64,000 nucleotides of DNA, from NCBI RefSeq assembly GCF_004010195.1, contig NC_057746.1, positions 16,812,820-16,876,819 on the forward strand. The letters run 5' to 3'. Position 1 is the first letter of the stretch. Each line of letters opens with the position of its first letter. The notes under the pieces were generated by a model, which saw only the letters and a program-made list of their open reading frames with translations, ran no database searches and was not told the DNA's origin. Position numbers and translations under genes: made by a program. This stretch comes from Chiloscyllium plagiosum. Lineage: Eukaryota. Positions 671-62,975 of the stretch are shown here, in pieces.

Positions 671-2379
671 ATGGTTTTGAGATCAACTCAGCTTGTGTCC
701 ATATACTACCCGATCCTGGCAGTAGCTGGAGTGCCTGGTGAGTTATATTCCTGTGTGTGAATCACATTTTTAAATTGTGCACATATATCTATGCCTGTTG
801 CCTGCTAATCCCATTGCATTGATGTCTAACTTGCCATGCACTCACTGAGAAATGTCCTCCATTGACGGTGTCTTGTCTCCTCCAAAATGTAACCTTTCTC
901 CTAATATCTTCGCTCCAAGAATTTCATTAGTCTTTCCTTCCATTTCATTCCCACTTAGTCTCAAAGTTGTCTGTCCTTTTGTTCCGAGCACTTCTGACCT
1001 TGGCATTTGCCAACTGTCTTGTGATTGTGCATTGTGTTCTTTTATAAGTTTGCTGACTTTTACTCTTTATGTAGTCTCTCTTCTGATCTTTTTGCTGGGC
1101 ATTGTTATCTCTCTGACTGCCAGTTACATACATAGTTGTTTCCACAAGCACATTTTCTTCTTTCCTGGGCTATTATCTTCTTCTGTAAAAGCTGGCAATT
1201 TTGTATCATTTTCTTCTTTTGTTTGTTGTTTCCTCCTCGATTTCTAAAACTGATAACCTTTTTTGTTATCCAACTTAATCTTTAAATTCAGATGCCTAAA
1301 ACATTCATGCAGAAAAAGAAAATTAGAATGTGAATCAGAAGCTCATCAGCACAAACATCAGAATGAGATAAATTAATACAAGTGGTGAACATTAAATCTA
1401 ACATTAACACAGTTAATGCTTACCGTTGATACAAGTTATTCATTTACTGTTTTCATTTTGCGTGTTTTCCACAGCTAATTTGGTGGCAATCGTGGTTCTG
1501 TCTAAGGGAAAATGTGGCCTATCCAAAAGTGTAACTCAATACCTAGTGGCTATGGCAACAGCAGATCTCATGGTGATCATTTGTAATGTTGTACTACACA
1601 GGATAGTTGCTCTATATCGCTTCAAATTTTTCCTGATTTACACTTCTGTGTGCAGACTCATTCTATTCCTCTCTCCAACTGCTGTGGACATTTCTGTCTG
1701 GCTCACGGTTGCATTTACTTTCGAGCGTTTTGTAGCTATTTGTTGGCCAAAGCTGAAAACAAAATATTGCACTGAGAAAACTGCCACTCGAGTTATCATC
1801 ATATTGAATCTTTTCTTTTGCATAAAAAACATCCCATGGTCTATCTTTCATGTTTCACATTTCATAGTTGACAATATACCACGGGGTTGTATAGAATCAT
1901 CAGCAATTTACCTACAGTTTGCAGGGATAGCATTTTCTTATTTAGAACAGCTTTTAACACCAATTCTTCCGTTCCTTTTGATTTTAAGCTTTAACATTCT
2001 CACAGTCAGGTGCATTTTAGTGGCCAGTCATGCCCGCAGGAATCTTCGGATCCACAAGAACAATGAGGAAAAAGGCGAGGACCTCGAAATGAACAATCGG
2101 AGAAGGTCCATTGTTTTACTTTTTGCAATATCTGCCAATTTTCTCCTGCTGTGGATAACAACAGTGTCATGTTTCATTCTTTTTCGAATTAAAAGCTATT
2201 TTAATTACAGATCGATCTTCAGCCCCTTGGAAATTTTCAAAACGGTAGGCATCATGCTGCAGCTTCTGAGCTCCTGCACAAACACTATCATTTATGCAGT
2301 GACCCAGAATAGGTTTAGACAGGAGCTGTTCAATATACTGAAACGTCATTTTACTCTTATTGGAAAACGGAGTGACTAA
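671..2379 (+). CDS. Class A (rhodopsin-like) orphan 7TM GPCR, GPR139/GPR142-like family; 2 exons (671-737, 1475-2379), 323 aa
   Basis: Exon 1 encodes MVLRSTQLVSIYYPILAVAGVP, then G|gtgagt (phase-1 donor at 738). Acceptor ttccacag|CT at 1475 joins in frame to ANLVAIVVLSKGKCGLSK. Seven hydrophobic segments; TM2 LVAMATADL, TM3 VAFTFERFVAIC, TM5 PILPF, TM7 SSCTNTIIYA; stop TAA 2377-2379; AATAAA at 2517-2522. The ORF-track start at 1426 is intronic read-through. Confidence 0.88.
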
Positions 2380-6904: not shown

Positions 6905-7855
6905 CATGTTTCTGATTGACAGGAATTACTGCTTCTGGTGGGTATTTTATGTTTCTGATTGACAGGGATCACTGCCTGTGATTGGCAGCTTGTGTTTCTC
7001 ATTATAAGAACATTCGGCCCATCGAACCCACTCCACCATTCAATCATGGCTGATGTGTATGTCAACGCCACTTACCCGCACTCTCCTCGTATCCCTTAAT
7101 TCCTTGTGAGATTAAGAATTTATCAATATCTGCCTTGAAGACATTTAATGTCCCACCTGCACTGCACTCCATGGCAATGAATTCCACCACTCTTTGGTTG
7201 AAGAAATGTCTCCTCACTTCCATTCTAAATTGACCCCCTCTAATTCTAAGGCTATGCCCACGAGTCTTAGTATTCTTGCCTGACGGAAACAATTTCCCAG
7301 AGCCCACCCTTTCTAAGCCATGCATTATCTTGTAAGTTTCTATTAGATCTCCCCTCAACCTTCTAAACTCTAATGAATACAATCCCAGGATCCTCAGCTG
7401 TTCATCGTATATTAGATCTACCATTTCAGGGATCATACATGTGAATCTCCACTGGACACACTCCAGTGCCAGTTTGTCCTTCCTGAGGTTATGGGGCCCA
7501 AACCTGGACACAGCATTCTAAATAGGGCCTAACCAAAGCTTTATAAAGTCTCAGTAGCACACCACTGTTTTTACATTCCAACCCTCTTGAGATAAATGAC
7601 AACATCACATTTGCTTTCCTAACCACGGACTCAATCTTCAAGTCAACCTTTAGAGAATCCTGTACTAGCACTCCCACACCCCTTTGTACTTTGACTTTAT
7701 GAGTTTTCTCACCGTTTATAAAATAGTCCCTGCCTGTGTTCTTTTTTCCAAAGTGCAAGACATTGACACAGATCATTGACTCTGGTTGGCAGCTTGTGCT
7801 TCTCATTGACAGGGCTGACTATCTCTGATTGGCAGCTTGTGTCTCTGATTGACAG
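6905..7855 (+). repeat. Degenerate ~40-bp tandem repeat of the MHC-I intron-2 3' splice region (tgtttctgattgacagg...tgattggcagcttg), split by a CR1 insertion
   Basis: The motif recurs at about 6907, 6950, 6993 (interrupted), 7797 and 7839. Two units are present in intron 2 of copies B and D. Confidence 0.7.
7004..7760 (-). mobile_element. 5'-truncated CR1 LINE 3' end
   Basis: Minus-strand ORFs LYKALVRPYLECCVQVW and LGLYSLEFRRLRGDLIETYKIM; possible short TSD catt. Confidence 0.88.
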
Positions 7856-9000
7856 GTATCATCACATACCAGATGGTCATTGGCTGTGACATGAGGGATG
7901 ATGGTTCTGAGAATGAGTTCACACAATATGAGTAGGACAGAAGGGATTTGATCAGCTTCGACAAGGCATGGCATGGCTGACTCCAGTCCCCTGGACAGAA
8001 ATCATCAAAAAGAGGTAGAACCAGTATGTGGTGGATAATCAACAATGGAAACATCTCCTGGAGTTGGGATATGTCAAATGTCTGAGGAAATACCTGGAGT
8101 ACAGACAGAGGGTGCTAGAGTCAGTGAGTGAGGTCCCTGACTCTCCATTTCGACATCCCTGAGCTGACTCCTCTTTCTTTCTCCCATCATGTGTTTTGTC
8201 CATTTGGCTAATCCTAACTAGCTGCCCTGCCTTGTCAACACAAGTAAGTCAACAAAAAAAAAAACACCAGGAATACTTTCTCTCTCTCTCTCTCTCTCTA
8301 ACAGTCCCATAGTCTCATTCCCAGATTCTTGTTACTGATGGAATTGTACTTGGAGCCCTTGGGATCTCACTATTGTGGCTGTCATCATTTACAAAAAGAC
8401 AGGCAGGAATATGTGAGGAAATGGCAGCTCCTCACAGGGAGTTCAGGAGTTAGAGAGCCTGAGGAGCGATTTCCCACTGTGAGGTTAAGAGCCCATGATA
8501 TGTGTTGCTGCAATGGGTGGGGGAGGAATCTCTATAGTTGTGTTCCATCTCAGAGTTAGAGGTGGCTCAGGCTATGGAGAGAGGGCCTCAGTTTGAGATG
8601 GAGGGTCTGAGATTGTGCCCTGGTCCTCAGGGTAAAGTGGAGGGTATCAGGGTTTGAGTCCCACATCGTGAGGCTAAAGTCAGATATTTCAGATTGTGGA
8701 CAGCTCTCAGTTCACTAAAGAACAACAGGCTGAGTCTCTTTGGGAGTGAGGGTCTCAGGTCGCAATGAGGGTGATGGTCTTGGGTGACTTTCAGGAGTGA
8801 GGGTATTAGTTGGGAGACCCAGTGGGAGTGAGGACCTCAAGGGATTAACATCCATCTCTCCATTTCTCTTGGAGTTCCCACCTCTCTGATGTGTGATTTT
8901 TTTTTGTCAGTTTCTTATCACTCATTGAATATTCCTGACAAATGGTAGCTCATAATTCAGATATCTCTGGCTCTCTGTGTTATCGTGAGGCTCACTGTTC
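7856..9000 (+). pseudogene. MHC class I pseudogene, copy A (alpha2 exon 7856-8123, alpha3 stub ~8181-8240, TM exon ~8305-8402)
   Basis: The alpha2 exon is homologous to copies B and D (ITYQMVIGCDMRDDG...KYLEY) and has an in-frame TAG at 7933-7935 plus indels. Only about 60 bp of alpha3 remain. The TM exon has a GC donor and a deletion, and the cytoplasmic exon is mostly deleted near 8935. No leader or alpha1 exon was found. Confidence 0.85.
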
Positions 9001-22184: not shown

Positions 22185-22233
22185 ATGATTGGACTAATAG
22201 TGCTGGGGCTTCTGTGGGGAGAGGTCTCTTCAG
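22185..22233 (+). CDS. MHC class I copy B exon 1 (signal peptide)
   Basis: ATG ATT GGA CTA ... TCT TCA G|gtgagt; hydrophobic core; paralogous to 48232 and 52972. Confidence 0.85.
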
Positions 22234-24718
22234 GTGAGTAGTGCGGGGAATGAGGGAGGCGGTACCGGGCGGATTGGACACTGGGGCATTAGTCCTCAGG
22301 CAATGTGTAATGGGAGTAGGGGGCAATGATCGGCTAGGTACTGAGCCTTAACCTTGGAACCTGTTACTGTTGGAATGGTTTACTTGGTATCTGACTTCAT
22401 CTTTTAACACATTTTTGATTGTAAAAAGAGTACAATTGTGAACTTGCAATCTAAAGAGACTTTGAAGGAGCTGGAATCTGTGTTGAAAACAACAAATACT
22501 GGAGATCACAGGAGGTCAGGCAGTATCCATGGAGTGAAAGTCATCTCTACTCGAAATGTTAGTTTGCCTTTTCTTTTGCTAGCGCTAGATAATATGTTTG
22601 AAAATGTCTCCTCAAACTTCCATTTCTACCATTACATCATTTTTCTTATGCTATAGATTGTTTTATCTATAGTAGACAAAGGTTTGAGTGGTTTCTATCC
22701 TGGAAGACAGAAGATGAGCTAAAACATGTGCTAAATGCTGGCTTTTACTCCTAATAAGATCAAGTGTGCCTGTCGGGTGTGCTTGAATAATTAAGTGTTA
22801 GTCTTTTTGTCTTTTACGTTAGTAAATGTTAATAACAAATACAAGGCCCATATGCTTTAAATAAGTTAGAAATTGTACCTGTATTTAGTAAAAGAATAGA
22901 GGATATTAAACTGATTACTGCAGCTGGGTTGTGAGATTTGTTTACTATACTTACTGAGTTTTGTTTATTCATGTAATTTCATGGAAGCACAATTTTTTTT
23001 TCTCAGTTAAGGTATGGTGGCTCTGATGAAAAGTATTCAACAAGTACATACTAATTGGGGAAAATGTTTAGTGTTCTGCAATCTGTTCAGGTCTGAGAGA
23101 CAGTTGGTCAGGGCTGATTAATTTTATAATCTTTCCATAGTTTCAGGTATGGCAAGGATGATATTGTTCTGAGTAGTAGTCTTTGATATTTATTCTGAGT
23201 TAAATAAGTCTAAACACTACATGTAACAAATGCTGATAAGAATTGAAGGTGTGAAGAAACAGGAATGGTTGAAAGGGCTGTTCTAATTAGAAAGGGTTGT
23301 TTTAATTTGGTTGATCTTGTTAAAATATACTATAAAACTGTGGTTTTATGAATGAATGAAATCATGTTATAGTAAATAATGGGTGAATAAAGCATTATGA
23401 ATGAATGAACAAGAACCTGGTATTAATGAACATTGCAAGTTGGTGAGTGACTTAATAAAGATGACCTATAATACAATATTTCACAAGGTTATAGTTGTTG
23501 GTGAATATGCAGTCTAAATATTATTTGCCACTTATCTGCCCAAACCTGAATGTTACATATGCAGTCTATATACAAATGCAGCAAGACCTCAGTATCTGGG
23601 GAGTTGTGAATAGGGTTGATCATTGTACAATCATCAGACAACATCCCCACAACTGGCCTTATGATGGACGAAAGGCCAGTTATTGAAGCAGCTGAAGATG
23701 GCTAGGTCTGGAAAATGAGGAACCACTGCAGTAATGTCCTGGAACTGAGGCAACTAACCTCCAGTAACTACTGCCACCTTCTTTTTGAATGAAGTATGAC
23801 CCCAACCAGTGAAGAGATTTTCCCTGAGTCCCATTGTCTCTAATATTGCCTAGGCTCCTTGATGCCACACTCAGTTAAACGTAGCCTTGACATCAACAGC
23901 CATCAGTCTCACTTCACCTCTGGAATTCTGATTTTGTGTCTATATTTGAACTAAAGCTGTAATGAAATGAGGAGCTGAGTGGTACTGGCAAAATACAAAC
24001 TGACATTTTTGTGCACAGAACTTATCTGAGCAATTTTTCACATTGCTTGGTAGGTGCAAGTGTTGTTGTTGTATGAGGACAAATTGGTATGGATGCAACT
24101 CATTCAGGAGCACAGGTCTTTAGTACAAATGCTGGAATGTTGTCAGAGTCCATAGCCTTTTCAGCATCCAGTGTTTTCAGCCATTTGTTTATATCACATG
24201 GAATGGATGGAATTGGCTGAAGATTCGAATCTGTAATGTTGGGGACCATAGCAACAGGCTGTGATAGATCATTTGCTTGACCATTCTGGCTGAAAGAAAT
24301 TGCACACGCTCAAGATTTGTCTTTGTGCTAGCCGTTTCCATCAATGACCATGGAGGTATTAATGCAGCCTCATCCTCTTGATTCCTGTTTAATTGTCAAC
24401 TGCCACTCACAACTGGATGAAACCAGGTTTACAGAGCTTCAATCTGATCTATTTGTTGTGGGTTTGATTGATTCTCTTCTCTCGCGCGAGCACGCTCTCT
24501 CTCGAGCTCTCTCATTAAACCATTGTTGTGATCCTAAATGAATGTACTACTGACATGTCAAATCTCAGAATGAAATTTGACATGATAGCTCATTGTCTCC
24601 CGTTCTTGTGCAGTTAATGCGTTGATTATCACTGAGACGAATTCACAGAGGCTATGACTCTTCTTTAACAAAACAATAGCACTTCACTACACAATAAGAA
24701 ATAAAATATTTCTTATTG

Positions 24719-24832
24719 GGCGTGGGCGGCACGGTGGCACAGTGGTGAGCACTGCTGCCTTGCAGCGCCTGAGACCCGGGTTCAATTCCTGCCTCAGGCG
24801 ACTGACTGTGTGGAGTTTGCACGTTCTCCCCG
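24719..24832 (+). mobile_element. 3'-truncated HE1-like SINE head flanked by a 65-bp direct duplication
   Basis: A box tggcacagtgg and B box ggttcaattcc; identical flanks at 24644-24708 and 24833-24897. Confidence 0.85.
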
Positions 24833-24994
24833 CACAGAGGCTATGACTCTTCTTTAACAAAACAATAGCACTTCACTACACAATAAGAAATAAAATAAGA
24901 AATAATATCTAAAGATAGAAGACAAATAGATCTCTAAACACACAGTAAACAAATCTTTTCAAATTGTTTCCTGACACCGTCCATCGTAAAAACT

Positions 24995-25225
24995 GTGAGG
25001 GGCAGTTTTTTTACACAGAGAGTGGTAGGTGTCTGGAATGCACTAACATGGGTGATGGTGGAAGCAGATATAATAGGGGCATTTAAGAGACTTTTAGGTA
25101 ACCATGTAAATATGCAAGAATATCAACCAATGGCAGGCAGAAGAAATTAGTTTAATTTGGCATTGGGTTTGGTCCAACATTGTGGGCCGAAGGACCCGTT
25201 CCTGTACTGTATACTTCTATGTTCC
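24995..25225 (+). mobile_element. CR1 3'-terminal fragment
   Basis: ttttttacacagagagtggtaggtgtctggaatgcact...gggccgaaggacccgttcctgtactgta..ttctatgttc tail. Confidence 0.75.
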
Positions 25226-25654
25226 ATCTTGTTGCCTTCTGTCCAACATGGAAGGAACTTTTCAAATTCATGAATCTAATGGCTTGGCCTCTGACCTTCA
25301 GGTGAGCTGAAAGAGCACACACAGAAATGTTGGTAGAAAAGGCCAGTAAGGAGATGATGGAGTTTGGAAACATGCAGAGGTATATATTTTGGCAGAAAGC
25401 ACGAGGGAAAAAATAAATGATGTCTAAACCCCATGCAGGAGTAGACATTGGGATCGGAAACATCATTGCAGGTTGGGGAGTGAGGGCAAGTTCAGAGAGT
25501 GCTTAAAGTGGCAGATGGGATCCTGGGCTTTACAAACACAGATGTTGAGTGTTAGAAGAAGTCAACCTAAGTGTTCAATTGGAGGTTTGTAATTGGTGTT
25601 TAGGGATTCATGTCCTGATGTTTTTTTTTCTCTCACTCTCTGTCTCTCTTTCAG

Positions 25655-25915
25655 ACATTCACTCTCTCCGGTATGTTATCACTGGTTTGACTCCGATAAC
25701 CGGTTTCCCAGAGTTTTTGATTGTTGGTTATGTTGATGGCATCCAGTTTGTTATGTACAACAGCGATCAGAAGAAGTTGATCCCCTGGGAACAGTGGATG
25801 GTGGAGAGTGAGGGACCTGAGGCCTGGAAGCGGAAACTATTCCTTGCTCGGGAGCAGGAGCTGTCCTTCAAAAATGATATTCATAACTTAAAAGTAAAGA
25901 CCAACCAAACAGACG
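25655..25915 (+). CDS. MHC class I copy B alpha1 exon
   Basis: (D)IHSLRYVITG...GFPEFLIVGYVDGIQFVMYNSD...EQWM..EGPEAW...TNQT; 261 nt, phase 1-1. Confidence 0.9.
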
Positions 25916-26125
25916 GTGAGTTTTCCCTCTCCACCTGCTCAACATCTTCCTGTGTGATCAGGAAATGTCAGTGGAAATCTGAAGAAACCAGGAGTGGATC
26001 AGGATCTGTCACCAGCCCTGATTAGCTCTGGTTGGTGACCTCCCACTGACACTTTATGGTACCTTATGCTTCTGATTGACAAGGATGATCGTTTCTGACT
26101 GGCAGCTTGTGTTTCTGATTGACAG

Positions 26126-26399
26126 GAGTCCACACACACCAGATGATGACTGGCTGTGACCTGAGGGATGATGGGACTGCGAGTGGGTTCAACCAATATG
26201 GGATGGGATGGACGAGATTATATCAGCTTCGATAAGGATCTTATGGTGTGGGTGACTCCGGTACCCTGGGCAGAAAGCATCAAAAACAGTTGGGATCAGG
26301 ATGTAGTGGACAAGCAGCGGTGGAAGCATTACCTGGAAGTGGAGTGTATTGAATGGCTGAGGAAATACCTAGAGTATGGACAGAGAGAACTGACAACGG
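26126..26399 (+). CDS. MHC class I copy B alpha2 exon (frameshifted)
   Basis: GVHTHQMMTGCDL...NQY, frameshift, then GWDGRDYISFDK...W...YLEVECIEWLRKYLEYG. Confidence 0.85.
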
Positions 26400-26529
26400 G
26401 TGAGTGTGGAGGAAGCCTATGCAGTGGGGGTTGGTGTGTGAGAAGGGAGTGAGAATTGGTGGAAGGAGTGGTGCCTGGGACTTTGTACATTGTGGTTCCT
26501 GCACTGATTCCTCTTCCCTTTTCTCGCAG

Positions 26530-26793
26530 TTGCTCCCATCGTGTCCTTTATCCGTCTGGGTGATTCCAACCGGCTGTCCTGTCTCGTCACTGGGTTTTAC
26601 CCACAAGCCATCGAGGTGATTCTGCGGAGGGATGGAGTGTTGATCGATGAGACCCTGTCCACTGGGATCTTACCTAATCACAACAGGACCTACCAGATCC
26701 GGAAATGGGTGGAGTTTGATCCAGAAGATCACGTCGAGTATTCTTGTCAGGTAGAGCACAGCGGGCTGGAAGAAACGCTGGTGGTGATTTATG
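26530..26793 (+). CDS. MHC class I copy B alpha3 exon (C1-set Ig)
   Basis: LSCLVTGFYP...ILPN..TYQIRKW...YSCQVEHSGL; 264 nt. Confidence 0.9.
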
Positions 26794-27209
26794 GTAAGAC
26801 TATTTCTCACTGTCAGAGAGAAATCAGACTCAGACCAGGATCTTAGAAGAGAGGGTGAGTGCTGAGCGTTTTCACCAGAACAGCCCAGGTTAGAAACAGG
26901 AACAATATATAGAAAGGGGCTCACATCATTTATAGGAAACAGTAATCAAGGCAGTTGCTCCTGGGAAGTACGATATAACATATATCAGTGTATCATGGTA
27001 TATTAGAGTTCAAAAGCATTGGGTATATGCTGAGATATAACAGAATGACAAGATCTGATGTGCTGCAGTTAAGTGTCACTCACTGTATCTGGTGATACAC
27101 AGTGTCATGGCACCCAATGTATCCTGAAACAAAATGCCCATTCAAATACCTGGCATATCCAGGAATATTACCGTATTAAAGTATACGGTACATTGTAAGT
27201 CACTTTTGA

Positions 27210-27525
27210 GTGACACAGTCACAAAGTGGTTAGCACCACTGACTCACGGTGCCAAGAACCCGTGTTTGATTCCACCCTCGGGTGACTGTTTGTGGAGCTC
27301 AGAAACCCATGTCTGCATGGGTTTCTGCATGGTGCTCCACTTTCCTCACACAGTCCAATGATGTGCAAATTAGATGGATTGACCATGCTAAATTGCCATC
27401 TCGTGTCCACAAATATGCAAGCTAGTTGGATTATCCATGGTTAATATGGGGTTGCGGCACTATGGGGTTAGGATAGGATAGGATGCACTTCAGAGGATCA
27501 GTGTAGACGTGATGGGCCAAGATGA
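27210..27525 (+). mobile_element. Old HE1-like SINE in intron 4 of copy B; paralogous copy at 59563-59900 in copy D
   Basis: SINE head agtggttagcac...gggtgactgtttgtggag; same flanking context in both paralogs. Confidence 0.75.
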
Positions 27526-28104
27526 TTATGATGTGACAGAACCTGTTGTATCCTCTCTTCGCCACAATCATCAAAGCTCCTTGGACAGACCCTTCCAAAC
27601 CTGTAACCACTTCCACCTAGAAGAGAGAAGGGATTCCCTGTAAATTCTCTTCCAAGCTGTTCACCATCCTGCCTTGCAAATATATCGTCATTCATTCAGT
27701 GTCGCTGGGTCAAAAAAACTCCCTTTGCGAGAAAGTTATAGGTCGACCTGCAGTAGTTCCAGAAGGTAGATCACCACCACCTTCTCAGTGGCAACTGGGC
27801 ATGAGCAATAAATGCTGACCCAGCCAGTAATGCCCACACCACATGAATGAATTATAAAAAAAAGAAAAATATCCTAAGATATTTTGTTAGAGACAGTGCA
27901 GTGAATCCTGGGATATTCATGTCCAACAGGACCCCATGTATCCTGACATATTACTGTATGGCTACGTCCAATGTATCATGGAATGATAGCCCAGTCTATT
28001 TAATATTGTTTCAAAATGTTTTTCTTTTTCTGATTTCAATGTGCAATAAGGAATATTCAGGATAGATTTTGAGAGGGATTATCTTGGTTGACCAACTTCA
28101 TTGA

Positions 28105-28308
28105 AGGAGGGGGTGATTCTCCACTACCATCCCCCCAACCTCACCACCCTTTCGCATTTATCTCTTAGCCACGCCTCCCCTCCCCTGCCCCCGTCCCAGC
28201 CCTGGACCACAAGCCTCATTCCTAATGAAGGGCTTATGCCCGCAACTTGGATTCTTCTGATCCTCGGATGCTGCCAGACCTGCTGTGCTCTTTCCAGCAC
28301 CACACTCT
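28105..28308 (+). mobile_element. Penelope-like 3' end insert (mutated hammerhead core)
   Basis: 12-bp TSD caacttcattga (28093-28104 / 28309-28320); empty paralogous site at about 60620-60640. Confidence 0.75.
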
Positions 28309-28364
28309 CAACTTCATTGAGTACATAATGAAGTACCAGAGCTCACTGTGGCAGTATTGTAGAT

Positions 28365-28635
28365 ATAGAACATAAGAACTAAGAGCAGGAGTAGGCCATC
28401 TGGCTCTGCTGCGCCATTCGATATGATCATTGCTGATTTTTCTGTGGCCTCAGCTCCACTTACCCACCCTCTCAACATAACCCTTCAATCCTTTACTGTT
28501 CAAAATATTATCTATTTTAGCTTTAAAAGTTTTACTGAGGAAGCTGAACTACCAGGGAATTCCATAGATTCACAACCCTTTAGGTAAAGAAGTTCTTCTT
28601 CAATTCAATCCTAAATCTGATCACCCTAATTTTGA
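28365..28635 (-). mobile_element. CR1 3'-terminal fragment
   Basis: Starts with the agaacataagaactaagagcaggagtaggccat tail (reverse orientation). Confidence 0.7.
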
Positions 28636-29349
28636 TATAATTTATCTTTAATAGAATGTAATATATTCAGGAATTGTGCTCTGTTTGCCAAAATCACTGA
28701 CTGATTAGACTACTCCACTGCAGCACACTTAACCAGACAGTTTGATGTCTGTGCCTCCTTTGAGATTTTTCCATCAGCCATTATTAATATATCTTAATTT
28801 AATTTATCCAGGTCATGAAGGAATTATGAAGTTTAGAGAATGTGGAGAGAGGGGAAATATAGTAAAATTGATTTGTTAGGTTGCTTCAAGTTAAGAAGCA
28901 GAATAGGGAATAAAGGATAGCTGGATGTCAAAATGCAGGAATTAATGTCTAGAAGGACTCGTGATAGACACACTGCTGGTCACAAATTACAAGAATGATG
29001 TGGACTTTCGAATCATGAAATGCCATGATGGTTATGGTGCAGAGGAGGTTCTTTAGCCCACTGTGTCTTCACTGGCTCTCTGAAAGAACACTAATAACTC
29101 ACTGTCATTCTACTGACTTTTCCCAATCAGCTTGAATATTTTTTCTTTGGAAATGGAGTTTAGAATTAAACTTCCTTTTTTATTGTAAACAGCAACACCA
29201 GGCAGTGTCAAGAAGTCAAGACAGGAAGTTTCAGATATTCTAAGACAGCCCTTGGGTAGAGGAGACAGGAGATTGAAAAATCTCAGAGGAGGCACATACA
29301 CTAGACAGTCTGGTCAAGTGTGCATAGTGAAATAATCTAATCAGTCAGT

Positions 29350-29528
29350 GAGGAGAAAGTGAGGACTGCAGATGCTGGAGATCAGAGCTGAAAAATGTGT
29401 TGCTGGAAAAGCGCAGCAGGTCAGGCAGCATCCAAGGAGCGGGAGAATCGACGTTTCGGGCATGAGACCTTCTTCAGGAATCTGGCACAGACATCATTCC
29501 TGAAGAAGGGCTTATGCCCGAAACGTTG
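29350..29528. mobile_element. Penelope-like insert with two divergently oriented hammerhead cores
   Basis: Minus-strand core at about 29449-29481 and plus-strand CTGAAGA-a-GGGCttatGCCC-GAAACGTT at 29500-29527; empty paralogous site at about 61221-61250. Confidence 0.75.
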
Positions 29529-30368
29529 ATTCTGGTGAGCAAAACACAATTCCTAAATATGCAGATGACACCAAAATGGGAGCTGGACAAAGCTCAGAAT
29601 AACTGCAACAAGGTTACCAGAAAATATTAATAAATATTAAAATGAACTAGTTCCTTGCAAATAAACTGGAGGAACAAAGGGATCTTGAAGTGCAAACACA
29701 CTAATTACTAAATGCTTTTGCACAGTTTAGCAAGGCCACAGATCAAAACAAGCGGTTAACTTGTCTATTAGGGAGAGAATTAAAGATTTGGTATGTGACG
29801 CTAAATCTCTTGAAATGTGATGAGACCTCAGTTAAGGTCATGATGTGATACAGTGCTTATTGTGGCACTGGAAAGGATGCAAAGGGGATTTACAATGACA
29901 ATATCAAAAATGAGTATGTATCAGGAAAGCATCATCAGGTTGAGTCTCTTCTCTCTTCAGCAATGGAGCCTGAGGGGTAAACTTCTAGAGACCCAGGTAA
30001 ATATGCAATATTTTGAAAGAGTGAAAAGAAACAGGATGATTTGTCTAGTATGGAAGATCATAACTAGAAGCCATCAGTATGAAACAGTCACTGGAGAATC
30101 GAATAGTAAATTTCAAAGAAACTTATTTGGATGAAGAGCGATGAATATGTAACTCACAGGCCACAGGCCATGGTAGATGTGTTTTTAGAGGACAGTCACA
30201 GGAAATAGTTGGCGACAATGAGAGATTTTTAGATAAGAAAGGCTGGGAGGAGTTTTAAATGGAGAATAAACACAAATACAATCTGCTTTCAACTGTGCTC
30301 TCTCTCTCTCTCTTACTCTCCCGCTATCTGGCTCACGCTCTATCTCATTCTCTCGATCTCTCTGACAG

Positions 30369-30473
30369 TCCCAAAGTCTCACTTCCAGGTTCTTGCTACT
30401 GCCGGGATTGTATTCGGAGTCCTCGGGATCATCTCTCTCACTGTTGTGGCTGTCGTCTTTCACAAGAAGAAAG
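30369..30473 (+). CDS. MHC class I copy B transmembrane exon
   Basis: (V)PKSHFQVLATAGIVFGVLGIISLTVVAVVFHKKK; ag|...|gtagg; 105 nt. Confidence 0.88.
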
Positions 30474-30631
30474 GTAGGAGTTTGTGAGAAAATGGCAGCT
30501 CCTCACTAGCGGTTCAGGGAGTTGGAGAATCTGAGGAGCGGTTCCCATGGTGGGGTTCAGGGCCCAGGATGTATGGAGGTTCTGCGGGTGAGGGAGTAAT
30601 CTTCATCTTTGGGATTCGGTCTCAGGGTTAG

Positions 30632-31290
30632 TGTGGGATATAGGTAAAGTAGTGTTATTTCTGCTATCATAATTATTATGCAAGGTAAATGAACTCACAC
30701 CAGTGTATAATTGTTTCAACCAAGAGCTAAGTCAACAAGAATGAAAACTATGTGAAGGAAATATATAATTGTTTTTGTATTAGCTAAGATGTGCATACAA
30801 GAATGAAACGTGCCTGCTAACAATGGTAGATGTTACAGACAAATAGATAAGGTGGTGTGAGGATGTAGGTTAAGCCAGATACAAACAGTAGTTATAAGCA
30901 TCTGTTTCCCACTTCTGCAAAAACAAAAAACAAACCCCAATTAAAAGGTCATAAGGTTGAATATGGTTGAGGAATGGGAGGAAATGTCACAAGTAGGGGA
31001 AATAGATGGTAGTGAAGGAGGATATACCTAACAATGGACCACAGCAGGATATGGTGAAATGGCCAAGTAAAACTTGTACTTTGTTATGCACAAAGCCGGA
31101 TAAGGCAGGAGATAAACAGTAGTAATGGGCACCGGGTTTGGAGTAGTGAATCCTATATAAGATATGTACTTGCTAAACTCTGCGTGTCTATTTTAGGCAC
31201 CACACTTGCAAGCATATAATAAACATACTGATTGCTTCAGTTCTTGTCTCGGACTGAAATTATTGAAGTGAATGAACTTCATTTCTCACA
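30632..31290 (+). mobile_element. Solo LTR (659 bp) in the TM-cytoplasmic intron of copy B
   Basis: TGTGGGA...TCTCACA termini; 5-bp TSD gttag (30627-30631 / 31291-31295); TATATAA 31154-31160; AATAAA 31218-31223; absent at the paralogous sites in copies A (about 8555) and D (about 62175). Confidence 0.85.
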
Positions 31291-32202
31291 GTTAGCAACG
31301 GCTCAGGCTGTGGGAGAAGGCCTCAGTTTGTGCAGGAGGGTCTGAGGTGGTGCCTATTCCTCAGGGTAGGATGAAGGGTCTCCGGGTTCAGGTTCTGATG
31401 TTTTGAGTGCAAAGTCAGACAGTTCAGACAGGGGCTGGATCTCAGTTCAGCGTTGGGCATCAGCAGCTCAGGGCAACTTGAGAATGATGGGCCAAGTCTG
31501 TATGGGAGTGGGGGTCTTGAAATGTGTGGGAGTGAGGATTGCGGATCATTGTCAGAAGTGTGGGCCTCAAGTGGGTTCATGTCAATCTCTCCCTTTCTTT
31601 TGTTGTTCCCACCTCAACTCTGACTCAGTTTCTTGTCAATCACTGAAAACATTCCTTGTTTTACAGGGAATGAAGAATGACTAGAGTCCCACAAACTGTA
31701 AGCTGATAATTCAGACATCTCTGGATCTCTGTAGTACTGTGACTCTGAGTCTTCTTTCCGGGTCGGATACATGCAATAGTTTGTTTCTCTCCTCTTTTAT
31801 GTCTCTCCCTGTCTCTGATGTTCTCATTGAATTTCTCCTTTCTCCTCTGTTATCTGTTGTCTCTAATGTTTACATGTGTTTTTCCATCTTTGTCTCTTTT
31901 TCTCTCCCTGTCCGTCTCTTTCTCTAGCTTTGTGCTCCCTCGCTCTCTCTTTCCACTTGAACAGTTTAAATGCTTCTCTTTCCATTAACAGCTTCTGATG
32001 GAAAAATGTCCTCAGCCAGGTCTGCTGGAATCTGATTTCTGAATACTATTGACCATTAGTGGGAACAGATCATTCAAGCTGGAATACTGGAACTGGTGTT
32101 AACTGTACAAATCTGAAGGGTGGACTGTGAGCTCAGTGCCTCTGTGTGAGTTCATTGGATATCGGCTCACACTGTTCAACACTAAGCTTTCGGACTGACC
32201 TT

Positions 32203-48049: not shown

Positions 48050-48280
48050 ACTGATGACTCTTAAAATCTTTTTATTTTGTCAATGATATTTTGGGATCAA
48101 TCAGTATGAAAGTAACTGAGTGAACAGAAACATAGTTCATATCAGTCCAGGACACAGCACAGAGACTGAGACAATCTGGTGGGAAATAATTTCTCACCAA
48201 TTTCTCCCCACAGGCTGTCAACTGAAGTCAAATGATTGGACCGATAGTGCTGGGATTTCTGTGGGAAGAGCTCTCTGCAG
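48050..48280 (+). pseudogene. Orphan MHC class I promoter and leader exon (copy C; exon 48232-48280, MIGPIVLGFLWEELSA) with no downstream alpha1-alpha3 of its own
   Basis: 5' UTR, leader and intron start are homologous to copy B (22060-22400); intact G|gtgagt donor; X2 site ctgatgactc kept, Y box lost. Confidence 0.8.
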
Positions 48281-52971: not shown

Positions 52972-53020
52972 ATGATTGGACTGTTAGTGCTGGGTCTTCT
53001 GTGTGGAAACCTTTGTGCCG
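52972..53020 (+). CDS. MHC class I copy D exon 1 (signal peptide)
   Basis: ATG ATT GGA CTG ... TGT GCC G|gtaagc. Confidence 0.85.
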
Positions 53021-56000: not shown

Positions 56001-59000
56001 AATTTTGATGTCCATGCAGATCAAAAACTCAGCTTGAAATGTTATCATGTCCCTGGACCATTACCAAGTGCAAACATGGTACACCCCCTTCTGTTCAAAA
56101 AGATGACTTTGCTCCATGTTAAAATATTTGTCACAAATTGCATGACTTATAAGATGGCCAAGTTGGGGAATCTTCACAGTGGATTGCAGAGGGAATTGAG
56201 GGAGACAGTTTCTCATCTTCATTGTATGGAAATATGGAAAAAAAACCTCAAAACAAGAAGAGCTCAGACCCTGGTCTCTGAATCTGACTCAGCAACAAAA
56301 CCGACATATTGGAATGTGTTGTGATGACAAAGGTGCTAAAACTATCAATCAGCAAAGACTTGTTCCATGGATTTGACTGAGGATATATAACCTCCTTTGT
56401 GATTGTGAACAGTTTGTTTTGGACCATCCTTTGTTCTGTTGATGGGAGAAAGTGAGGGCTGGAGATCAGACATAAGAGTGTGGTGTTGGAAAAGCACAGC
56501 CGGTCAGGCAGCATCCGAGGAGCAGGAGAATCGACGTTTCGGACATAAGCCCCTCATTCCTGATGAAGTGTTTATGCCCGAAACATCAATTCTCCTGCTC
56601 CTTAGATGTTCCCTGACCGGCTGTGCTTTTCCAGCACCATGTTCTCAACCCTTTGTCCTGTTGTTGGCCAGTTTCATTTGACAGAAATTCCTCTTTGATT
56701 TTTGGAGACCTTTAATAACACATTCTGAACTTCTGAATCAGTCTGTTCCCACTGGCCAAGAAAAATAACAAACTGTCTGGGTTAACAACTAGAACTGCCT
56801 GAAAGTTAGAGCCTCAACCTTTTTCTTCTGAAGAATCTAGAATTAATTTGAAAAACAAACTGTTCCTCTACTTACAAAATTGTGAGAAACTGCCATTTTC
56901 ATCCTGCTGCCTCCTCACTAACCTGGAAGGAATTCTTAGAATTCTTGACTTAAGTTGTTTGGTCTCTGACCTTCAGGTGAACTGATAGAAAACACACACA
57001 CACACACAATGTTAGTGGAAATGGCCATTAAGTGGCTGATGAATGTGAGTATTGAGAAGTGCAGAGTTATACATTTTAGCAGGAAGAAGGAAGAAAAACA
57101 AAATAAACCATTAATTTTTCAATCCTGTGCAGGAACAGACCAGGAGTTGTAAAAGTCATTGGAAGATTCGGGACTGGGGGACAAGTTCAGAAGGTGGTTA
57201 ATGTCACCAGTGGGAACCTGTGCTTAATAAACACAGGTGCAGAGTGTACACAGAAGTTTCCCTCCATGTTTAGTTGGAGTTTTTGTGATTGGTGTTTAGG
57301 GATTCATGTCCTGACATCTCACTCTCTCTCTCTCTCTCCATTTCAGACACTCACTCTCTCCGGTATTTCTTCACTGCTATGACTCCAGTTCCTGCTTTCC
57401 CGCAGTTTGTGATTGTTGGTTATGTGGATGGAGTCCAGTTTGTTACGTACAACAGTGATCAGAAGAATTTGATCCCCCGGGAACAGTGGATGGTGGAGAG
57501 CGAGGGGCCTGAGGCCTGGAAAAGGAAACTATCCCTTGCTCGGGAGCAGGAAAGGAATTTCAAAAACGCTGTCCTGAGCTTGAAGTCACGAAACAACCAA
57601 ACAGATGGTGAGTCCTCCCTCTTCAAAAGCTTGACAGTTTCCTGTGTGATCAGGTTTCGGTGAGAATAGAAAGAAACCAAGAGTGGATCAGAATCTCTAA
57701 CCAGAGCCTGATTTTCTGTGGTTGGCACCTCCCACTGACAGTGTCTGGTAGCTTTTGTTTCTGATTGACAGGGATGACTGTCTCTGATTTTCTACAGAAA
57801 ATGGCTGAGTAGGATACTTCAGGCAGATTTCCTCTGTTCTGTCTTTTCCTTCTCTTCAGTGTTTTTTATTAAACATTTGCTCAGAGGGGAATGACAGAGA
57901 CAAGTCCCGGACAGGAGGCTGGTGTGAGGAGGAGATGTCCTTGCAGACTGGCAGTGAGGCCTTGAGTTTTGAAGCTTGGTGCTGTTTGGAGACTTTGCCC
58001 TAAGCAGCCTGGAGGCTCGGTGTTGGCAAAGACTGAGGTGAAAGGATTGTAAATAGTGTTTTTAATCTTAGATTTTTTTTAGATTACTTACAGTGTGGAA
58101 ACAGGCCCTTCGGCCCAACAAGACCACACTGACCCTCTGAAAAGCAACCCACCCAGACCCATTCCCCTATATTTATCCCTTCACCTAACACTACTGGCAA
58201 TTTAGCATGGCCAATTCACCTAACCTGCACAATTTTGGAATGTGGGAGGAAACCAGAGCACACGGAGGAAACCCACGCAGACACAGGGAGAACGTGTAAA
58301 CTCCACACAGACAGTTGCCTGAGGCAGGAATTGAACCCGGGTCTCTGGCACTGTGAGGCAGCAGTGCTATCCACTGTGCCGCCCACCTGGATTTTTATTA
58401 TTGTTTCATTTTTGTACCCAAATATTAAGTATCTATAGATATTTTGTACCTAACGTAGTGCCAGAAGTGGTGACATTGCAAACTTTTCACTGCATTTATT
58501 CGAATGCATGTGACAAGAAAGCTAATTCAATTCAATTTGATTGGCAACTTGTGTTTCTGATTGACAGGGATCCATACGTATCAAATGATGACTGGCTGTG
58601 ACCTGAGTGATGAAGGGATGACAAGTGGATTCAACCAATATGGATGGAATGGACAAGACATCCTCAGCTTGGATAAAAATCATATGGTGTGGGTGACCCC
58701 AGTCTCCTGGGGAGAAAGTATCAAGAACAGGTGGGACCAGGATGTGGTGGACAATCAGCGGTGGAAGCATTACCTAGATGTGGAATGTGTTGATTGGCTG
58801 AAGAGATACTTGGAGTATGGACAGCGACAACTGAAAGTCGGTGAGTGTGGGGGGAGCCAGTAGGCAGTGAGGAGGGAGTGAGAGTCTTTGAAGGGTATGG
58901 TGCCCTGGCAGTGTATCTTATCATTCCTGCAGTGATGCCTGTTTCTGTCTCCCTTAGTTCCCCCTGATGTGTCCTTTACCCGTCTGGGTGATTCTAACTG

Positions 59001-62000
59001 GCTATCCTGTCTCGTCACGGCGTTTTACCCACAAGCCATCGAGGTGACTCTGTGGAGGGACGGAGTGTTGATCGATGAGACCCTGTCCACTGGGATCTTA
59101 CCCAATCACGACATGACCTACCAGATCCGGAAATGGATAGAGTTTGATCCGGAGGATCAGGCTGAGTATTCCTGTCAGGTGGAGCACAGTGGACTGGAGG
59201 AGACGCTGGTGATAATTTATGGTAAGACCATTTCTCACTGTCAGAGAGGAGCCAAACATAAACCAGGATTACAGGAGAGGGGATCAGTGCCGACCTGCTT
59301 CATCAGGACAGGGGCTCACATCATTTCTTTTTAGAAAACCGTAATTGAGGCCGTTTTCTGATACCCAGGTGCTCTTAACCTGCTGTTATATTCTGGGATA
59401 TAACAGAATGATAGGACCTGTTATATTACAGTGTATTATCATTGTGTACCAGGGATACTGCAGTACAATGGCATTAGTGTATCCTGATGTATAATGCCAT
59501 CCAACACCTAACATATCAGGAATATTACAGAATTAAAGTCCAGGGTGCACTGTGTGATTATTGGGTGGCATGGGACCACAGTGGTTAGTAGTGCTGCCTC
59601 ACATTGCCAGGGACCTGGGTTCATTTCCAGCCTTGGATGTCTATCTGTGCGCAGTGTGCTTGTTCTCCCTATGTCTGCATGGGTTTCCGCGTAGTGTTCT
59701 GGTTTCTTCCCATAAGCCAAAGATGTGCAGGTTAAGTGGATTGGCTGTGCTAAGTTGTTCCTTTTAGAATGTGTAAGCTAGGTGGGTTAGACATTGGTAT
59801 GTGGAGTTACAGGGATGGGTAATGGGATGGATGCTCTATGTCGAGTTGATGTAGACTCAATGGGTCAAACGGCCTCTATCTGCACTGCAGGAATTCTGTA
59901 ATTCTGTGATTATGGTATGATGTTGTAGCCTCTCCGTTTGCCAAATTCATCCAAGCCCTTTGGACAGCTTCCAAGCTCTCATCCACTTCACCAAGAAGGA
60001 TATGGGCAGTACTTACAGGGGAACAGTACTTCCTGTGAATTCTCTTCCAAGCTATTCGCCATCCTGCTTTGTAAATATATTACCATTCATTTAGTGTTGC
60101 TGGGTCAAAATCTTGAACTCCTTTCGTAACAAATTTGTAATTCTACCTTTAGCAGTTCAAAACAGCAGCTCACTGCCATCTTCTCAGTGGCAACTGTGAA
60201 CGGGCAATAAATACTGGCCCAGCTACTGATGCCCATGTTTTGTGTGTTATGTTTTCACAGCCCAAAGGTGTGCAGATGAGGCAAATTATGCTAAATTACC
60301 CAGAGTAACCAAGGATGGGTCTGGGTGGGATGCTGTTTGGAGGGTTGGTGTGGACCTGATGGACCAAATGGTCACTGCCCACATTGTAGAGATTCTATAT
60401 TTTGTTACATGACAGTCCAATGTATCCTGGGATATTCATGTCCAACAAGATGTAGTATATCCTGAGAGATTATGGTGTGGTAGCATCCAGTGCATTCTGG
60501 AATTATAGCTCCATCTATATAACATGGTTTTAAAATATTTTTGTGATGCTAAGAAATCTTCTATTTTTGATTTAAATGAAATCAAACAAAGTCAGCATAG
60601 ACTGAGAGGAAATATTATGGTTGACCAACTTCACTGAAGTTTTTCATGTGGGATCAGACTCGTAGCAGTAATTTTATGTATGTATTTTGTGCAGGTTTTT
60701 AAAAAACATATTAAATACTTCCATAACAGAAGAATAAATTCATTCAGAGAATGTGGAAAGAGTGGAAATGTCGTGAAATTAATTGTTGGGTGGTTTCAAG
60801 ACAAGAAACAGATCTGGAAATAATGGATTGTTAGAGCTTCAAGATGCAGGAATTAATGTTCCACAAGGACGAGTGATAGAAACATTGCTGATCACAATTT
60901 CCAAGAATGACCTGGACTTTGGAATCATGAAATCCCAGATTGCCCCCTGTGTCTTCACTGGATTTCTGAAATGATTCTGAAATTAATGATTCAGCATCAT
61001 TTACTGTCTTTTTCCAATAGAATTTAAAATCTTCTTTATAAATGTAAATTTAGAATTAACTTTCCATTTTCATTTACAGATAGCAACAACATGCAATCTC
61101 AAGAAGTCAAGTTTCATGTATTCTAACACAATCCTTGGGAATAGGAGACAGCAGAACCAAAATCTCACAGGAGGCACATGCACACTTGGCCAGACTGCTG
61201 AGTGTTACACTGGAATAATCTAATCAGTCAGTCATTCTGCTGATCAAAATACAATTCCTAAATTTGCAGATGACACCACATTGGGGGATAGACCAAACTC
61301 GTGAGATCTGTAACAAGTTACAAGAAAAAGTACTAAATGTTAAAATGAACAAGTTATTGGCAAATGAACTGGAGGAACAAAGAGATCCTGAACAAAAATA
61401 TACACCAGTTACGAAATGTTTTTCCACAGGTTAGCAAGGTCGCAAATCAAAGCATGCAATATAATTATCTAGAGAGGGAACTAGTTGGTAGGTGATGCTA
61501 AATTAATCTTGAAGTGTGATTGACTCCACATATGGAGTACTGCAGATAGTTGTGATCACCATATAGAAAAGATATTGAGACATAAGAGAAGATGCAGAGA
61601 AGATTGACAATGATGATATCAGAAATGTGAGAGTATACATATCAGGAAAGAATTGACATGCTGGATCTCTTCTCTCTTGAATAATGGAGACTGAAGAGTG
61701 ACCTAACAGAGACTGTAACAGTAGGCAATAGCAAATTGAGAAGAAGCTTCTTTGGGTAAAGAGTGGTGGGAATGTGGAACTTGAAGGCACAGGAAGTGAA
61801 AAAGGAAAGTAGAAGGAAATAGAGGGAAACAAAGAGAGATTTAGTTGAGGAATACTGGGAGGAACCTCCTAATGGTCGGTCTCTCTCTCTCTCTCAGTCC
61901 CGACATCTCGTTCCCAGGTTCCCATGACTGTCGGGATTCTACTTGGGGTCCTTGGGATCGTTGCTCTTGCTGTTGCGGCTTTCTTCATCTACAAGAAGAA

Positions 62001-62975
62001 AGGTAGGAGTTTATGAAAAAGTGGCAGCTCCTCCCTGGGAATTCAGGGGGTGGAGAGCCTGAAGAGGGGTTTCCCACAGTAGGGTTCAGGGCCCAAGGTG
62101 TGTGCGCACGCGTGTGTGTGCATGTGCGCGACAGATGGGGGAAGACCCTCTGTGTTTGGAGGTTGGTCTCAAGGCTTTACAGGAGCTCAGGCTGTGGGGA
62201 GAAGGCCTCAGTTTGTGAAGCAAGATAGGAGATGGAACCCTGTTCCTTAGGGTAGGTAGGAGTACATGTAGGTTCTCTGGGTACATATGAGTGTAAAGTC
62301 ATTTCAGATTGTGGATGACTGTCAGTTTGGTGTTGGATATTAGCGGCTCAGGGCAAATTTAATAATGAAGGACTGAGCCTGGATGTGAGCGTGGATCTTG
62401 GGTACCGGTCAGGGTGAGAGCCTTGGGTAGGTGTCTCATTGGGAATAGTGGTCTCAAGAGGCTTCATGTCCATCGCTCCCTTTCTTTTGGAGTTTCCACC
62501 TCTCTCTGTTCTGTGATTCAATGGCTCTTTTTTTGGGTCAATCACCTAAATATTCCTTGTTTTTGCAGAGAAAGTGAAGAATGGCTACGATCCCACAAAC
62601 AGTAAGCTGATAATTTGGACATTTCTGGATCTCTATTATTGTGAAACTAACTCTTCTTTTTGTGTTAGATGGATATAATGGCTTGTTTCTATGTCTGTGT
62701 GTTATACACTGTCTCCCTATATCTTTCTTTCTTTTCTGTCTGTTTTGATCTCTGTACCTGCTTCCATTGTGTCTCTGGTCTGGGTATATTTATCCACCTC
62801 TCTGTGAGTATTTATCACACTTCTTTTTCCCCTCTGTCTGTTTCCCCTTCACACACTCCTTCTCTTTGTCTTGTGTTCTGTCACAGTATCTCTGATAATG
62901 AACAGTTTTTTAATGCCTCTTTTTCCATTAACAGCTGATGATAGGACACCCTCAGACGGTTCTACCAATACCTAA
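52972..62975 (+). CDS. Non-classical MHC class I heavy chain, copy D; intact 7-exon gene, 341 aa
   Basis: Exons 52972-53020 (MIGLLVLGLLCGNLCA), 57347-57607 (alpha1), 58568-58840 (alpha2), 58958-59221 (alpha3), 61898-62002 (TM), 62569-62601 (EKVKNGYDPTN), 62935-62975 (TDDRTPSDGSTNT*). All introns are phase-1 GT-AG, total 1026 nt, open frame. Both disulfide Cys pairs and the N86 glycan site (NQT) are conserved. Confidence 0.92.
53096..53106 (+). promoter_or_regulatory. ISRE-like element in intron 1 of copy D
   Basis: GAAAGCGAAAC matches GAAANNGAAAC. Confidence 0.4.
53510..55520 (-). mobile_element. Cluster of minus-strand CR1 3' fragments (about 53510-53690, 53985-54375, 54640-55520) with a SINE fragment (about 53700-53860, +)
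   Basis: ORF 54163-54354 MLPGLEGLFYEERMMKLGLFSLE..RGDLIKVYKIM; reverse-complement CR1 3' UTRs. Confidence 0.75.
56446..56649. mobile_element. Palindromic Penelope-like insert with CTGATGA hammerhead core (56560 onward)
   Basis: Inverted arms; 18-bp TSD with 2 mismatches (56428-56445 / 56650-56667). Confidence 0.78.
57347..57607 (+). CDS. MHC class I copy D alpha1 exon
   Basis: (D)THSLRYFFTAMTPVPAFPQFVIVGYVDGVQFVTYNSD...EGPEAWKRKL...RNNQTD. Confidence 0.92.
57790..58537 (+). mobile_element. Retroelement insertion in intron 2 of copy D, with a nested minus-strand HE1-like SINE (about 58070-58386)
   Basis: 5-bp TSD tgatt (57785-57789 / 58538-58542); (attca)n tail; absent from intron 2 of copy B. 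Confidence 0.7.
58568..58840 (+). CDS. MHC class I copy D alpha2 exon
   Basis: GIHTYQMMTGCDL...QYGWNGQD...IKNRWD...HYLDVECVDWLKRYLEYG; 273 nt. Confidence 0.92.
58958..59221 (+). CDS. MHC class I copy D alpha3 exon
   Basis: (V)PPDVSF...LSCLVTAFYPQAIEVTLWRDG...YSCQVEHSGL; 264 nt. Confidence 0.92.
61898..62002 (+). CDS. MHC class I copy D transmembrane exon
   Basis: (V)PTSRSQVPMTVGILLGVLGIVALAVAAFFIYKKK. Confidence 0.9.

Follow-up and report, generated by a model that had tools for sequence, protein, structure and literature searches.

The window analysed here, 64,000 nucleotides of Chiloscyllium plagiosum DNA, carries class I sequences within 55 kb of its + strand, to which all coordinates below refer: two full copies (B and D), one relic (A) and one orphan leader exon (C). 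No match to class I lineages other than UBA was found within the window, and a GPCR open reading frame was the sole further gene seen in it. Copy A (7855..8411) consists of alpha2 and transmembrane (TM) exons bearing stops and frameshifts, with the alpha3 exon absent between them and no alpha1 exon found, and copy C (48232..48280) is a leader exon with a GT donor, for which no downstream exons of its own were found in the window. Copy B (22185..32035) is a UBA paralogue with leader (22185-22233), alpha1 (25655-25915), alpha2 (26126-26399), alpha3 (26530-26793), TM (30369-30473) and last (31992-32035) exons. Its alpha2 exon measures 274 nt as compared with 273, with one extra base near 26200 that had been overlooked in the earlier note on this DNA, and a decayed cytoplasmic exon lies near 31667-31697. 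The orthologues of copy B in C. punctatum and Hemiscyllium, the gene models of which skip this cytoplasmic exon, are intact, and omega between B and D is low in all domains; the view of copy B as a pseudogene was therefore rejected. Since these orthologues are intact, the extra base, which is the sole lesion, may be either a recent allele or lesion or a mistake of the assembly. Missing alpha3 exons were likewise rejected for B and D, and hold for relic A only.

Copy D is an intact, spliced class I gene of this bamboo shark, composed of seven exons: leader (52972..53020), alpha1 (57347..57607), alpha2 (58568..58840), alpha3 of the Ig C1 type (58958..59221), TM (61898..62002), first cytoplasmic (62569..62601) and last coding exon with the stop (62935..62975), followed by the 3' UTR. 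All the boundaries are AG/GT, and the coding sequence of 1026 nt has a single stop at its end. Copy D corresponds to the second half of the public C. plagiosum model XP_043533792.1, which wrongly joins B and D. All five junctions within the 6-kb stretch checked for splicing (the leader junction lies outside it) were seen in the contigs of all three contig runs, the alpha1-alpha2 splice included; these runs represent three samples from three studies, none of them recorded as RNA. Two of the five were also seen in single reads of one raw RNA run. The contig pieces covering alpha1 and alpha2 showed no other letters in any of the three runs, one of whose samples is perhaps the source animal. Compared with its orthologues, copy D differs at 7 of 178 positions from each of two other species, at none of the tabulated groove positions. 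Since copy D is intact and spliced and has changed very little between two genera, it is a good candidate gene for study.

The 17 codons covering the alpha1 3-10 turn and the start of the alpha1 helix (57481..57531 in D, 25789..25839 in B) translate into the same residues in both copies, as the earlier note had claimed; the four codons that distinguish them (AGC/AGT, GGG/GGA, AAA/AAG and AGG/CGG, D/B) are synonymous without exception. In HLA numbering they include A59 (57514-57516 in D), W60, K61 (57520-57522), R62 (57523-57525) and K63 (57526-57528). The numbering, set by eye, holds when compared with nurse shark UAA (PDB 6LUP), with human and mouse chains, and with HLA-A2 as given in a published alignment. 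Also correct were the calls of Y7, W147, Y159, W167 and Y171 as retained, of I143, of R146 (D) or S146 (B), and of R84 (D) or K84 (B), while I at position 123 of copy D had been overlooked. The alpha1 exon of D also carries L45 (57469-57471) and L66 (57535-57537), both near-fixed in UBA, and its alpha2 exon carries I143 (58720-58722), R146 (58729-58731) and E163 (58783-58785), together with W147, W156, Y159, W167 and Y171.

The run of synonymous-only differences had been taken as a sign of preservation. The probability that four out of four differences are synonymous under neutrality is 0.001, and a 17-codon window without replacement at the alpha1+2 rate has P=0.004 if preset, but this window was chosen post hoc. 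In shuffles, also post hoc, an identical run of at least 17 codons arises with P=0.05 within alpha1 only, 0.14 within alpha1+2 and 0.46 within alpha1-3, and in alpha3 itself B and D are identical over stretches of 18 and 16 codons. The omega values, estimated from the B and D pair alone, are 0.29 for alpha1, 0.22 for alpha2 and 0.23 for alpha3. Synonymous divergence in the segment (0.44) is about that of the gene (0.36), and the segment is hence no conversion tract. Conservation of most of this stretch extends to classical class I; of the 57 UBA rows, 4 have the exact 17-mer and 13 have AWKRK, and both orthologues of D have one residue of the 17-mer changed. Ordinary purifying selection explains the run of synonymous-only differences, which adds little to the gene-wide level (omega 0.22-0.29). 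The distal helix does diverge between B and D, but at both kinds of site alike (dN 0.26, dS 1.04, omega 0.25), and that of D is identical in two other hemiscylliid species.

Copies D and B belong to the nonclassical elasmobranch UBA lineage, in agreement with the class Ib family proposed earlier. According to PMC12562908, this lineage was first reported by Bartl et al. 1997 and is a class Ib family that derives from UAA and has expanded; PMC10751288 describes it as a multicopy tandem cluster of its own in the MHC, and states that the functions of the shark class Ib lineages are unknown. The elasmobranch UBA cluster is flanked by c4 and rxrb in the MHC. A first homologue search gave 27 proteins, those with a named species being exclusively from sharks, including the UBA sequences of nurse shark (AAC60347) and horn shark (AAC60348). 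For the second search the best 120 of 167 matches were used. A total of 143 proteins yielded 137 ectodomain rows, and removal of 11 duplicates and 3 rows of less than 85% coverage left 123 rows, isoforms and possibly dead copies among them: 57 of the UBA clade, as delimited by a quick tree, 39 from other cartilaginous-fish sequences and 27 from bony vertebrates. In the quick tree the UBA clade of 57 rows has an SH-aLRT of 93 and the inner 56 rows one of 97. In a careful tree of 45 rows, which sets D and B apart from UAA, 23 UBA rows including D, B, AAC60347, AAC60348 and ray sequences fall on one side of a branch supported at 100/100, and a tree of alpha1 only recovers the grouping at 100/89. 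The orthologues of B and those of D cluster tightly, in both cases across two genera. These trees were built without UCA, UDA, UEA, UFA and UGA; in the labelled alpha1 and alpha3 alignments of the PMC10751288 supplement, inspected by eye, K63 with a UBA-type alpha1 occurs among the cartilaginous-fish rows in two UBA rows only, that alpha1 file having no UEA-labelled row, and the labelled nurse shark UBA there is AAC60347. An identity of the copies with UEA or UCA was rejected, as the trees and the labelled alignments point to UBA.

Residue conservation was counted in the 57 UBA rows against the 39 other cartilaginous-fish rows, which are related and not independent. Y59 is found in none of the UBA rows as opposed to 35 of the others, position 59 being A in 35, S in 12 and F in 5 UBA rows, with four other residues and one gap. 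K63 is present in 53 UBA rows and in one of the others, where position 63 is E (18), Q (10) or N (6). Also more frequent in UBA are L45 (54/57 vs 4/39), L66 (52/57 vs 1/39), acidic 163 (E or D, 52/57 vs 15/39) and W156 (46/57 vs 8/39). W167 is present in all 57 UBA rows and in 37 of 39 others. K63 and acidic 163 occur together in 50 UBA rows, one other cartilaginous-fish row and none of the 27 bony-vertebrate rows; in the single UBA row where position 63 is L, E163 is missing too (n=1). T143, present in all 39 other rows, is kept in 3 UBA rows, with I143 in 49, and losses are also seen at K146 (7/57 vs 35/39) and W147 (37/57 vs 38/39). After filtering at 88% identity (43 UBA vs 33 other rows), K63 is found in 39, K61 in 11 and Y59 in none of the UBA rows. 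For these non-redundant rows the overall alpha1+2 pair identity is alike (0.62 in UBA vs 0.61 in others), while the mean pair identity at positions 45, 63, 66, 67 and 163, five positions picked post hoc, is 0.74 vs 0.22; for the whole B pocket it is 0.57 vs 0.35 and for the A pocket 0.67 vs 0.64. In gain of conservation, L45 ranks first, K63 third and L66 fourth among 178 columns, several non-groove positions also gained conservation, and helix-top position 65 turned variable. Central and F-pocket positions differ between UBA paralogues, as they do in peptide binders.

At ten classical anchor positions copy D keeps six, having lost Y59, T143, K146 and Y/F123. No fully scored UBA row (n=37) keeps more than eight and nine keep just one to four, whereas 26 of 33 other rows keep nine or ten. 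Three marks of classical UAA are thus replaced in D by A59, I143 and R146. UAA keeps Y59, T143 and K146 and varies at 45, 63, 66, 67 and 163, while UBA is fixed at those five. The UBA pattern is that classically variable positions (45, 63, 66, 67 and 163) have become fixed and that classically fixed terminal anchors are lost or relaxed at both ends of the groove.

Set against these counts, several claims of the earlier note stand, and others need to be narrowed. The loss of Y59 and the presence of K63 extend to further paralogues and species, and the conserved end of the groove is indeed the N-terminal end. The basic 'KRK patch' is in effect the single change E63K, since K61 is rare (18/57 UBA vs 2/39 others) and R62 is common in other lineages too (48/57 vs 24/39). 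The pocket is nearly invariant at K63, and not at position 59. Variability alone does not describe the C-terminal end: with I143 fixed, the C-terminal anchor is altered lineage-wide, and the distal helix of D is conserved in its orthologues. R84 was rightly called in D, but is no departure, being the usual non-mammalian classical residue (32 of the 39 other rows). The odd groove motif is a family-wide signature of the already described UBA, and the gene family is not new; the reference UBA sequence already has K63 and lacks Y59. What emerges is a sharper lineage-wide signature, with L45, K63, L66, acidic 163 and W167 fixed and Y59 and T143 lost.

The properties of the pockets were estimated as crude sums over customary pocket lists and scales of volume and hydropathy. 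The side-chain volume of the A pocket is about 110 cubic angstrom lower in UBA than in other shark class I, which agrees with the enlarged pocket proposed earlier; F59, found in 5 UBA rows with the reference nurse shark UBA among them, gives no enlargement. The positive charge that had been claimed is not clearly present: acidic 163 is fixed opposite K63 so that the charges of the A pocket cancel, with a net value of 0.0 (others -0.6), or +0.8 (others -0.1) if rim residue 62 is included. The B pocket has a charge of +1.2 vs -0.5 and a hydropathy sum of 17.5 vs 2.1, and the groove as a whole exceeds that of other shark class I in basic charge (+2.9 vs +1.5) as well as in hydrophobicity. By general class I geometry, residue 63 would line the A/B wall, 62 would lie on the rim and 61 would face outward, and the conservation pattern agrees with this arrangement. 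An AlphaFold model (pLDDT 92.4), used for confidence and secondary structure only, is helical over residues 55-82. Fold searches confirmed the class I fold, the top rows being tied (Z 25.3-26.0, rmsd 6.7-8.5) because alpha3 was mis-docked without beta2m; the many MR1 matches are no evidence of an MR1-like function, as MR1 ties with classical class I. A search of solved structures turned up no UBA chain, and the nearest solved structure by both sequence and fold is the classical shark UAA (PDB 6LUP), with 52% identity and unchanged alpha1 length.

With UBA of nurse and horn shark, D and B share K63, L45, L66, I143, W156, E163 and the loss of Y59. They differ in being hemiscylliid-specific paralogues with polar distal helices, in having A59 and Y159 where nurse shark UBA has F59 and F159, and, for D, at 63 of the 178 alpha1+2 positions of the nurse shark protein. 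Among better-known molecules, MR1 also has the equivalents of 59 and 63 replaced and E at the equivalent of 163. Its groove-floor lysine K43, the lysine that forms the Schiff base with the ligand, aligns to L45 of UBA (54/57 rows), however, and an MR1 tyrosine aligns to K63. H2-M3, the mouse presenter of N-formyl peptides, is, like UBA, a class Ib molecule with a remodelled N-terminal end. It shrinks pocket A by W167L and Y171F and uses H9 (PMC2193201), but D has W167, Y171 and F9 (H9 occurs in 2 of 57 UBA rows), with the change on the alpha1 side and no orthology implied, so that the earlier comparison with H2-M3 does not extend to its defining residues. Mamu-B*098, a rhesus presenter of N-myristoylated lipopeptides, resembles D in that residue 63 is bulky, residue 99 is small, pocket B is hydrophobic, and a basic side chain of alpha1 is in a position to bridge E163. 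It is an allomorph of a classical locus, and its bridge is R66-E163 instead of K63-E163, D having L66. Of the residues small in Mamu-B*098 (9, 70, 97 and 99), D has F9, Q70, M97 and T99, only the last being small; as the first three are larger than S9, A70 and T97, a long acyl chain is unlikely in D. UBA carries the full set of defining residues of none of these three kinds, and may work somewhat like H2-M3 or Mamu-B*098.

The reading that we favour, with a rough probability of 0.35, is that the amino-terminus pocket is gated by a bridge between K63 and E163, and that peptides with a blocked or extended N-terminus anchor in pocket B. By homology, K63 and E163 would be opposed across the groove at the A/B boundary, and the salt bridge between them would gate the pocket that normally takes the free amino end of the peptide; with the amino-terminus site gated, Y59 would become dispensable. 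The ligands would be peptides whose first anchor is hydrophobic and whose N-terminus is either extended or blocked by a short acyl group (formyl or acetyl, for instance); K63 could donate a hydrogen bond to the acyl or a backbone carbonyl, and the hydrophobic B pocket would anchor the ligand in place of the amine site. Paralogues may diversify the centre and the C-terminal end, each with its own groove, as B and D do across two genera. Under this reading the likeness to H2-M3 would consist in an unused pocket A, an anchor in a hydrophobic pocket B and an acyl oxygen met by a basic side chain.

We infer the gate from the fixed K63 and acidic 163 together with ion pairs known at the A/B boundary, namely R62-E163 in H-2Dd and E63-R167 in M10.5 (PMC1174912). 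In classical class I the peptide amine is contacted directly by Y7 and Y171 and through water by Y59 (PMC2193201), and E63 touches P1 and P2 (PMC5961055). In Mamu-B*098, the bulky Q63 and the R66-E163 bridge narrow the A-B channel, nothing fills pocket A, and the acyl chain occupies the hydrophobic pocket B (PMC4735555); H2-M3 has a reduced pocket A, with P1 shifted to pocket B (PMC2193201); in HLA-F, the N-terminus protrudes out of an altered pocket A (PMC7590165). In favour of the gate, the amine-binding tyrosines are relaxed in UBA, Y159 being kept in 39 and Y171 in 43 of 57 rows besides the complete loss of Y59. Several observations speak against it. Copy D keeps Y7, Y159, Y171 and W167, which are direct amine or carbonyl contacts (PMC5961055), as well as R84 and W147. 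E163 itself is also present in 14 of the 39 other shark and ray rows, and the grooves of D and B are less hydrophobic than the UBA mean (overall hydropathy 6.5 and -0.5 vs 19.4). In addition, peptides in H-2Dd run beneath the R62-E163 bridge (PMC1174912), indicating that a bridge need not close the pocket.

Nearly as likely as the K63-E163 gate, although unlikely when taken by itself, is that UBA-D binds ordinary peptides with a free amine and a narrow fixed motif, as do Qa-1 and HLA-E, with R62 and K63 favouring an acidic P1, and with a preference of the B pocket, lined by leucines, for a hydrophobic residue at the second position. The six classical anchors kept in D (Y7, Y159, Y171, W167, R84 and W147) fit such binding. 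Y59 contacts the amine only via water (PMC2193201), and the amine hydrogen bonds persist in H-2Kb E63A (PMC5961055). In bat Ptal-N*01:01 an arginine equivalent to R62 anchors P1-Asp (PMC6752855), and position 63 varies among the classical genes counted above. Against ordinary binding speak the lineage-wide loss of Y59, T143 and K146 and anchor scores of at most eight in UBA as opposed to nine or ten in most other rows, and a free amine with its charge should be unfavourable next to a lysine at this site. Such binders apart, the earlier note had suggested an enlarged, positively charged N-terminal pocket for N-modified or anionic ligands. In the form considered here, a net-positive cavity would bind a phosphate, a carboxylate, a metabolite or the head of a lipid, and the ligand might be a non-peptide amphiphile. 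The lower side-chain volume of the A pocket, the positive B pocket, the more basic and hydrophobic groove and the near-invariance of K63 in sharks and rays are in line with this suggestion, which we nevertheless consider improbable: acidic 163 cancels the charge of K63 in the A-pocket sum, K61 is not conserved, F59 rows show no enlargement, the position of the Schiff-base lysine of MR1 is L45 in UBA, and central and F-pocket positions differ between paralogues in the manner of peptide binders.

A further explanation, to which we give still less credence, is that the fixed residues serve folding or the contact of a receptor or chaperone at the left end of the groove, the ligand being minor or absent in many paralogues. 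The 17-codon stretch is mostly structural and shared with classical class I, non-groove positions also gained conservation, and some paralogues have lost most of their anchors, nine rows being reduced to one to four. Against such a role, L45, K63 and L66, which are among the four columns with the largest gain, all face the groove by homology, helix-top position 65 became variable, and the groove positions of D are unchanged in two other species. Returning to the K63-E163 gate, a more specific version of it is a long shot: UBA would comprise old shark and ray presenters of N-acylated peptides, for example bacterial N-formyl peptides, with a function like that of H2-M3 reached independently. In this version the K63-E163 bridge would gate pocket A in lieu of L167 and F171 of M3, the paralogues would cover differing C-terminal sequences, and a sevengill shark gene that combines K63 and E163 with Y59 would represent an intermediate step.

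The UBA signature points to two residues for mutation and to a ligand class, and thereby offers a testable clue to the ligands. Should UBA indeed bind N-blocked peptides, innate-like sensing of them would reach back to cartilaginous fish. The pairing of K63 with E163 was not found in the literature searched, the primary shark class I papers (Bartl 1997; Almeida 2020, 2021) aside, and may be known already; the available portions of PMC6523485 and PMC1513397 contain nothing on the UBA groove. As to the order of the changes, the alpha1 domain of the sevengill shark gene is sister to UBA (99/94, over 88 columns only) and has L45, K63, L66 and E163 while still keeping Y59, T143 and K146, which is consistent with K63 and E163 having arisen before the loss of Y59. 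The alpha3 domain of this gene is identical to that of its UAA-like neighbour, indicating that conversion may be involved.

The public gene model XP_043533792.1 (window 22185-62975) joins copies B and D into one merged protein of 671 residues, but, contrary to this fused model, copies B and D are two separate genes. In the alpha2 exon of copy B, the reading frame is shifted by one additional G within a short ATGGG repeat (window 26195-26205), and the alpha2 frame is unbroken in the copy B orthologues of C. punctatum and Hemiscyllium; the extra G is either an assembly error or a recent null allele. The first cytoplasmic exon of copy B (window 31667-31697) is decayed, being 2 bases short and containing TAG. 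In the orthologue models the TM exon is spliced straight to the last exon, resulting in a short tail, from which the tyrosine motif present in the D tail is absent.

In relic copy A (window 7855-8411), the alpha3 exon was lost by deletion: the TM exon follows within about 180 bases past alpha2. In the intron upstream of alpha2, the acceptor region is repeated several times, and an element has been inserted. The orphan leader exon of copy C (window 48232-48280), located 4.7 kb upstream of the D leader with its donor intact, may be a leftover of a lost copy or may serve D as an alternative first exon.

Within UBA, the proteins P0064 and P0069 (Stegostoma, Hemiscyllium) form a divergent sublineage with F59, S63, T143 and W146, that is, without K63 and with T143 retained. 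Positions 64 and 65 (copy D codons, window 57529-57534) vary in UBA, and position 65, on the receptor-facing side, is hydrophobic in most cases; in classical shark genes T64 and Q65 are each found in 31 of 33 rows and are thus almost invariant. P0077, a Heptranchias perlo protein, has an alpha1 domain that branches as the sister of the whole set of UBA alpha1 domains. This protein carries the UBA-type L45, K63, L66 and E163 together with retained Y59, T143 and K146, and its alpha3 is 100% identical to that of the UAA-like protein P0080. P0077 is possibly a UAA-to-UBA intermediate or a recombinant.

The UBA cluster is adjoined by an intact, single-exon ORF for a rhodopsin-family GPCR (window 1417-2376; Pfam 7tm_1).
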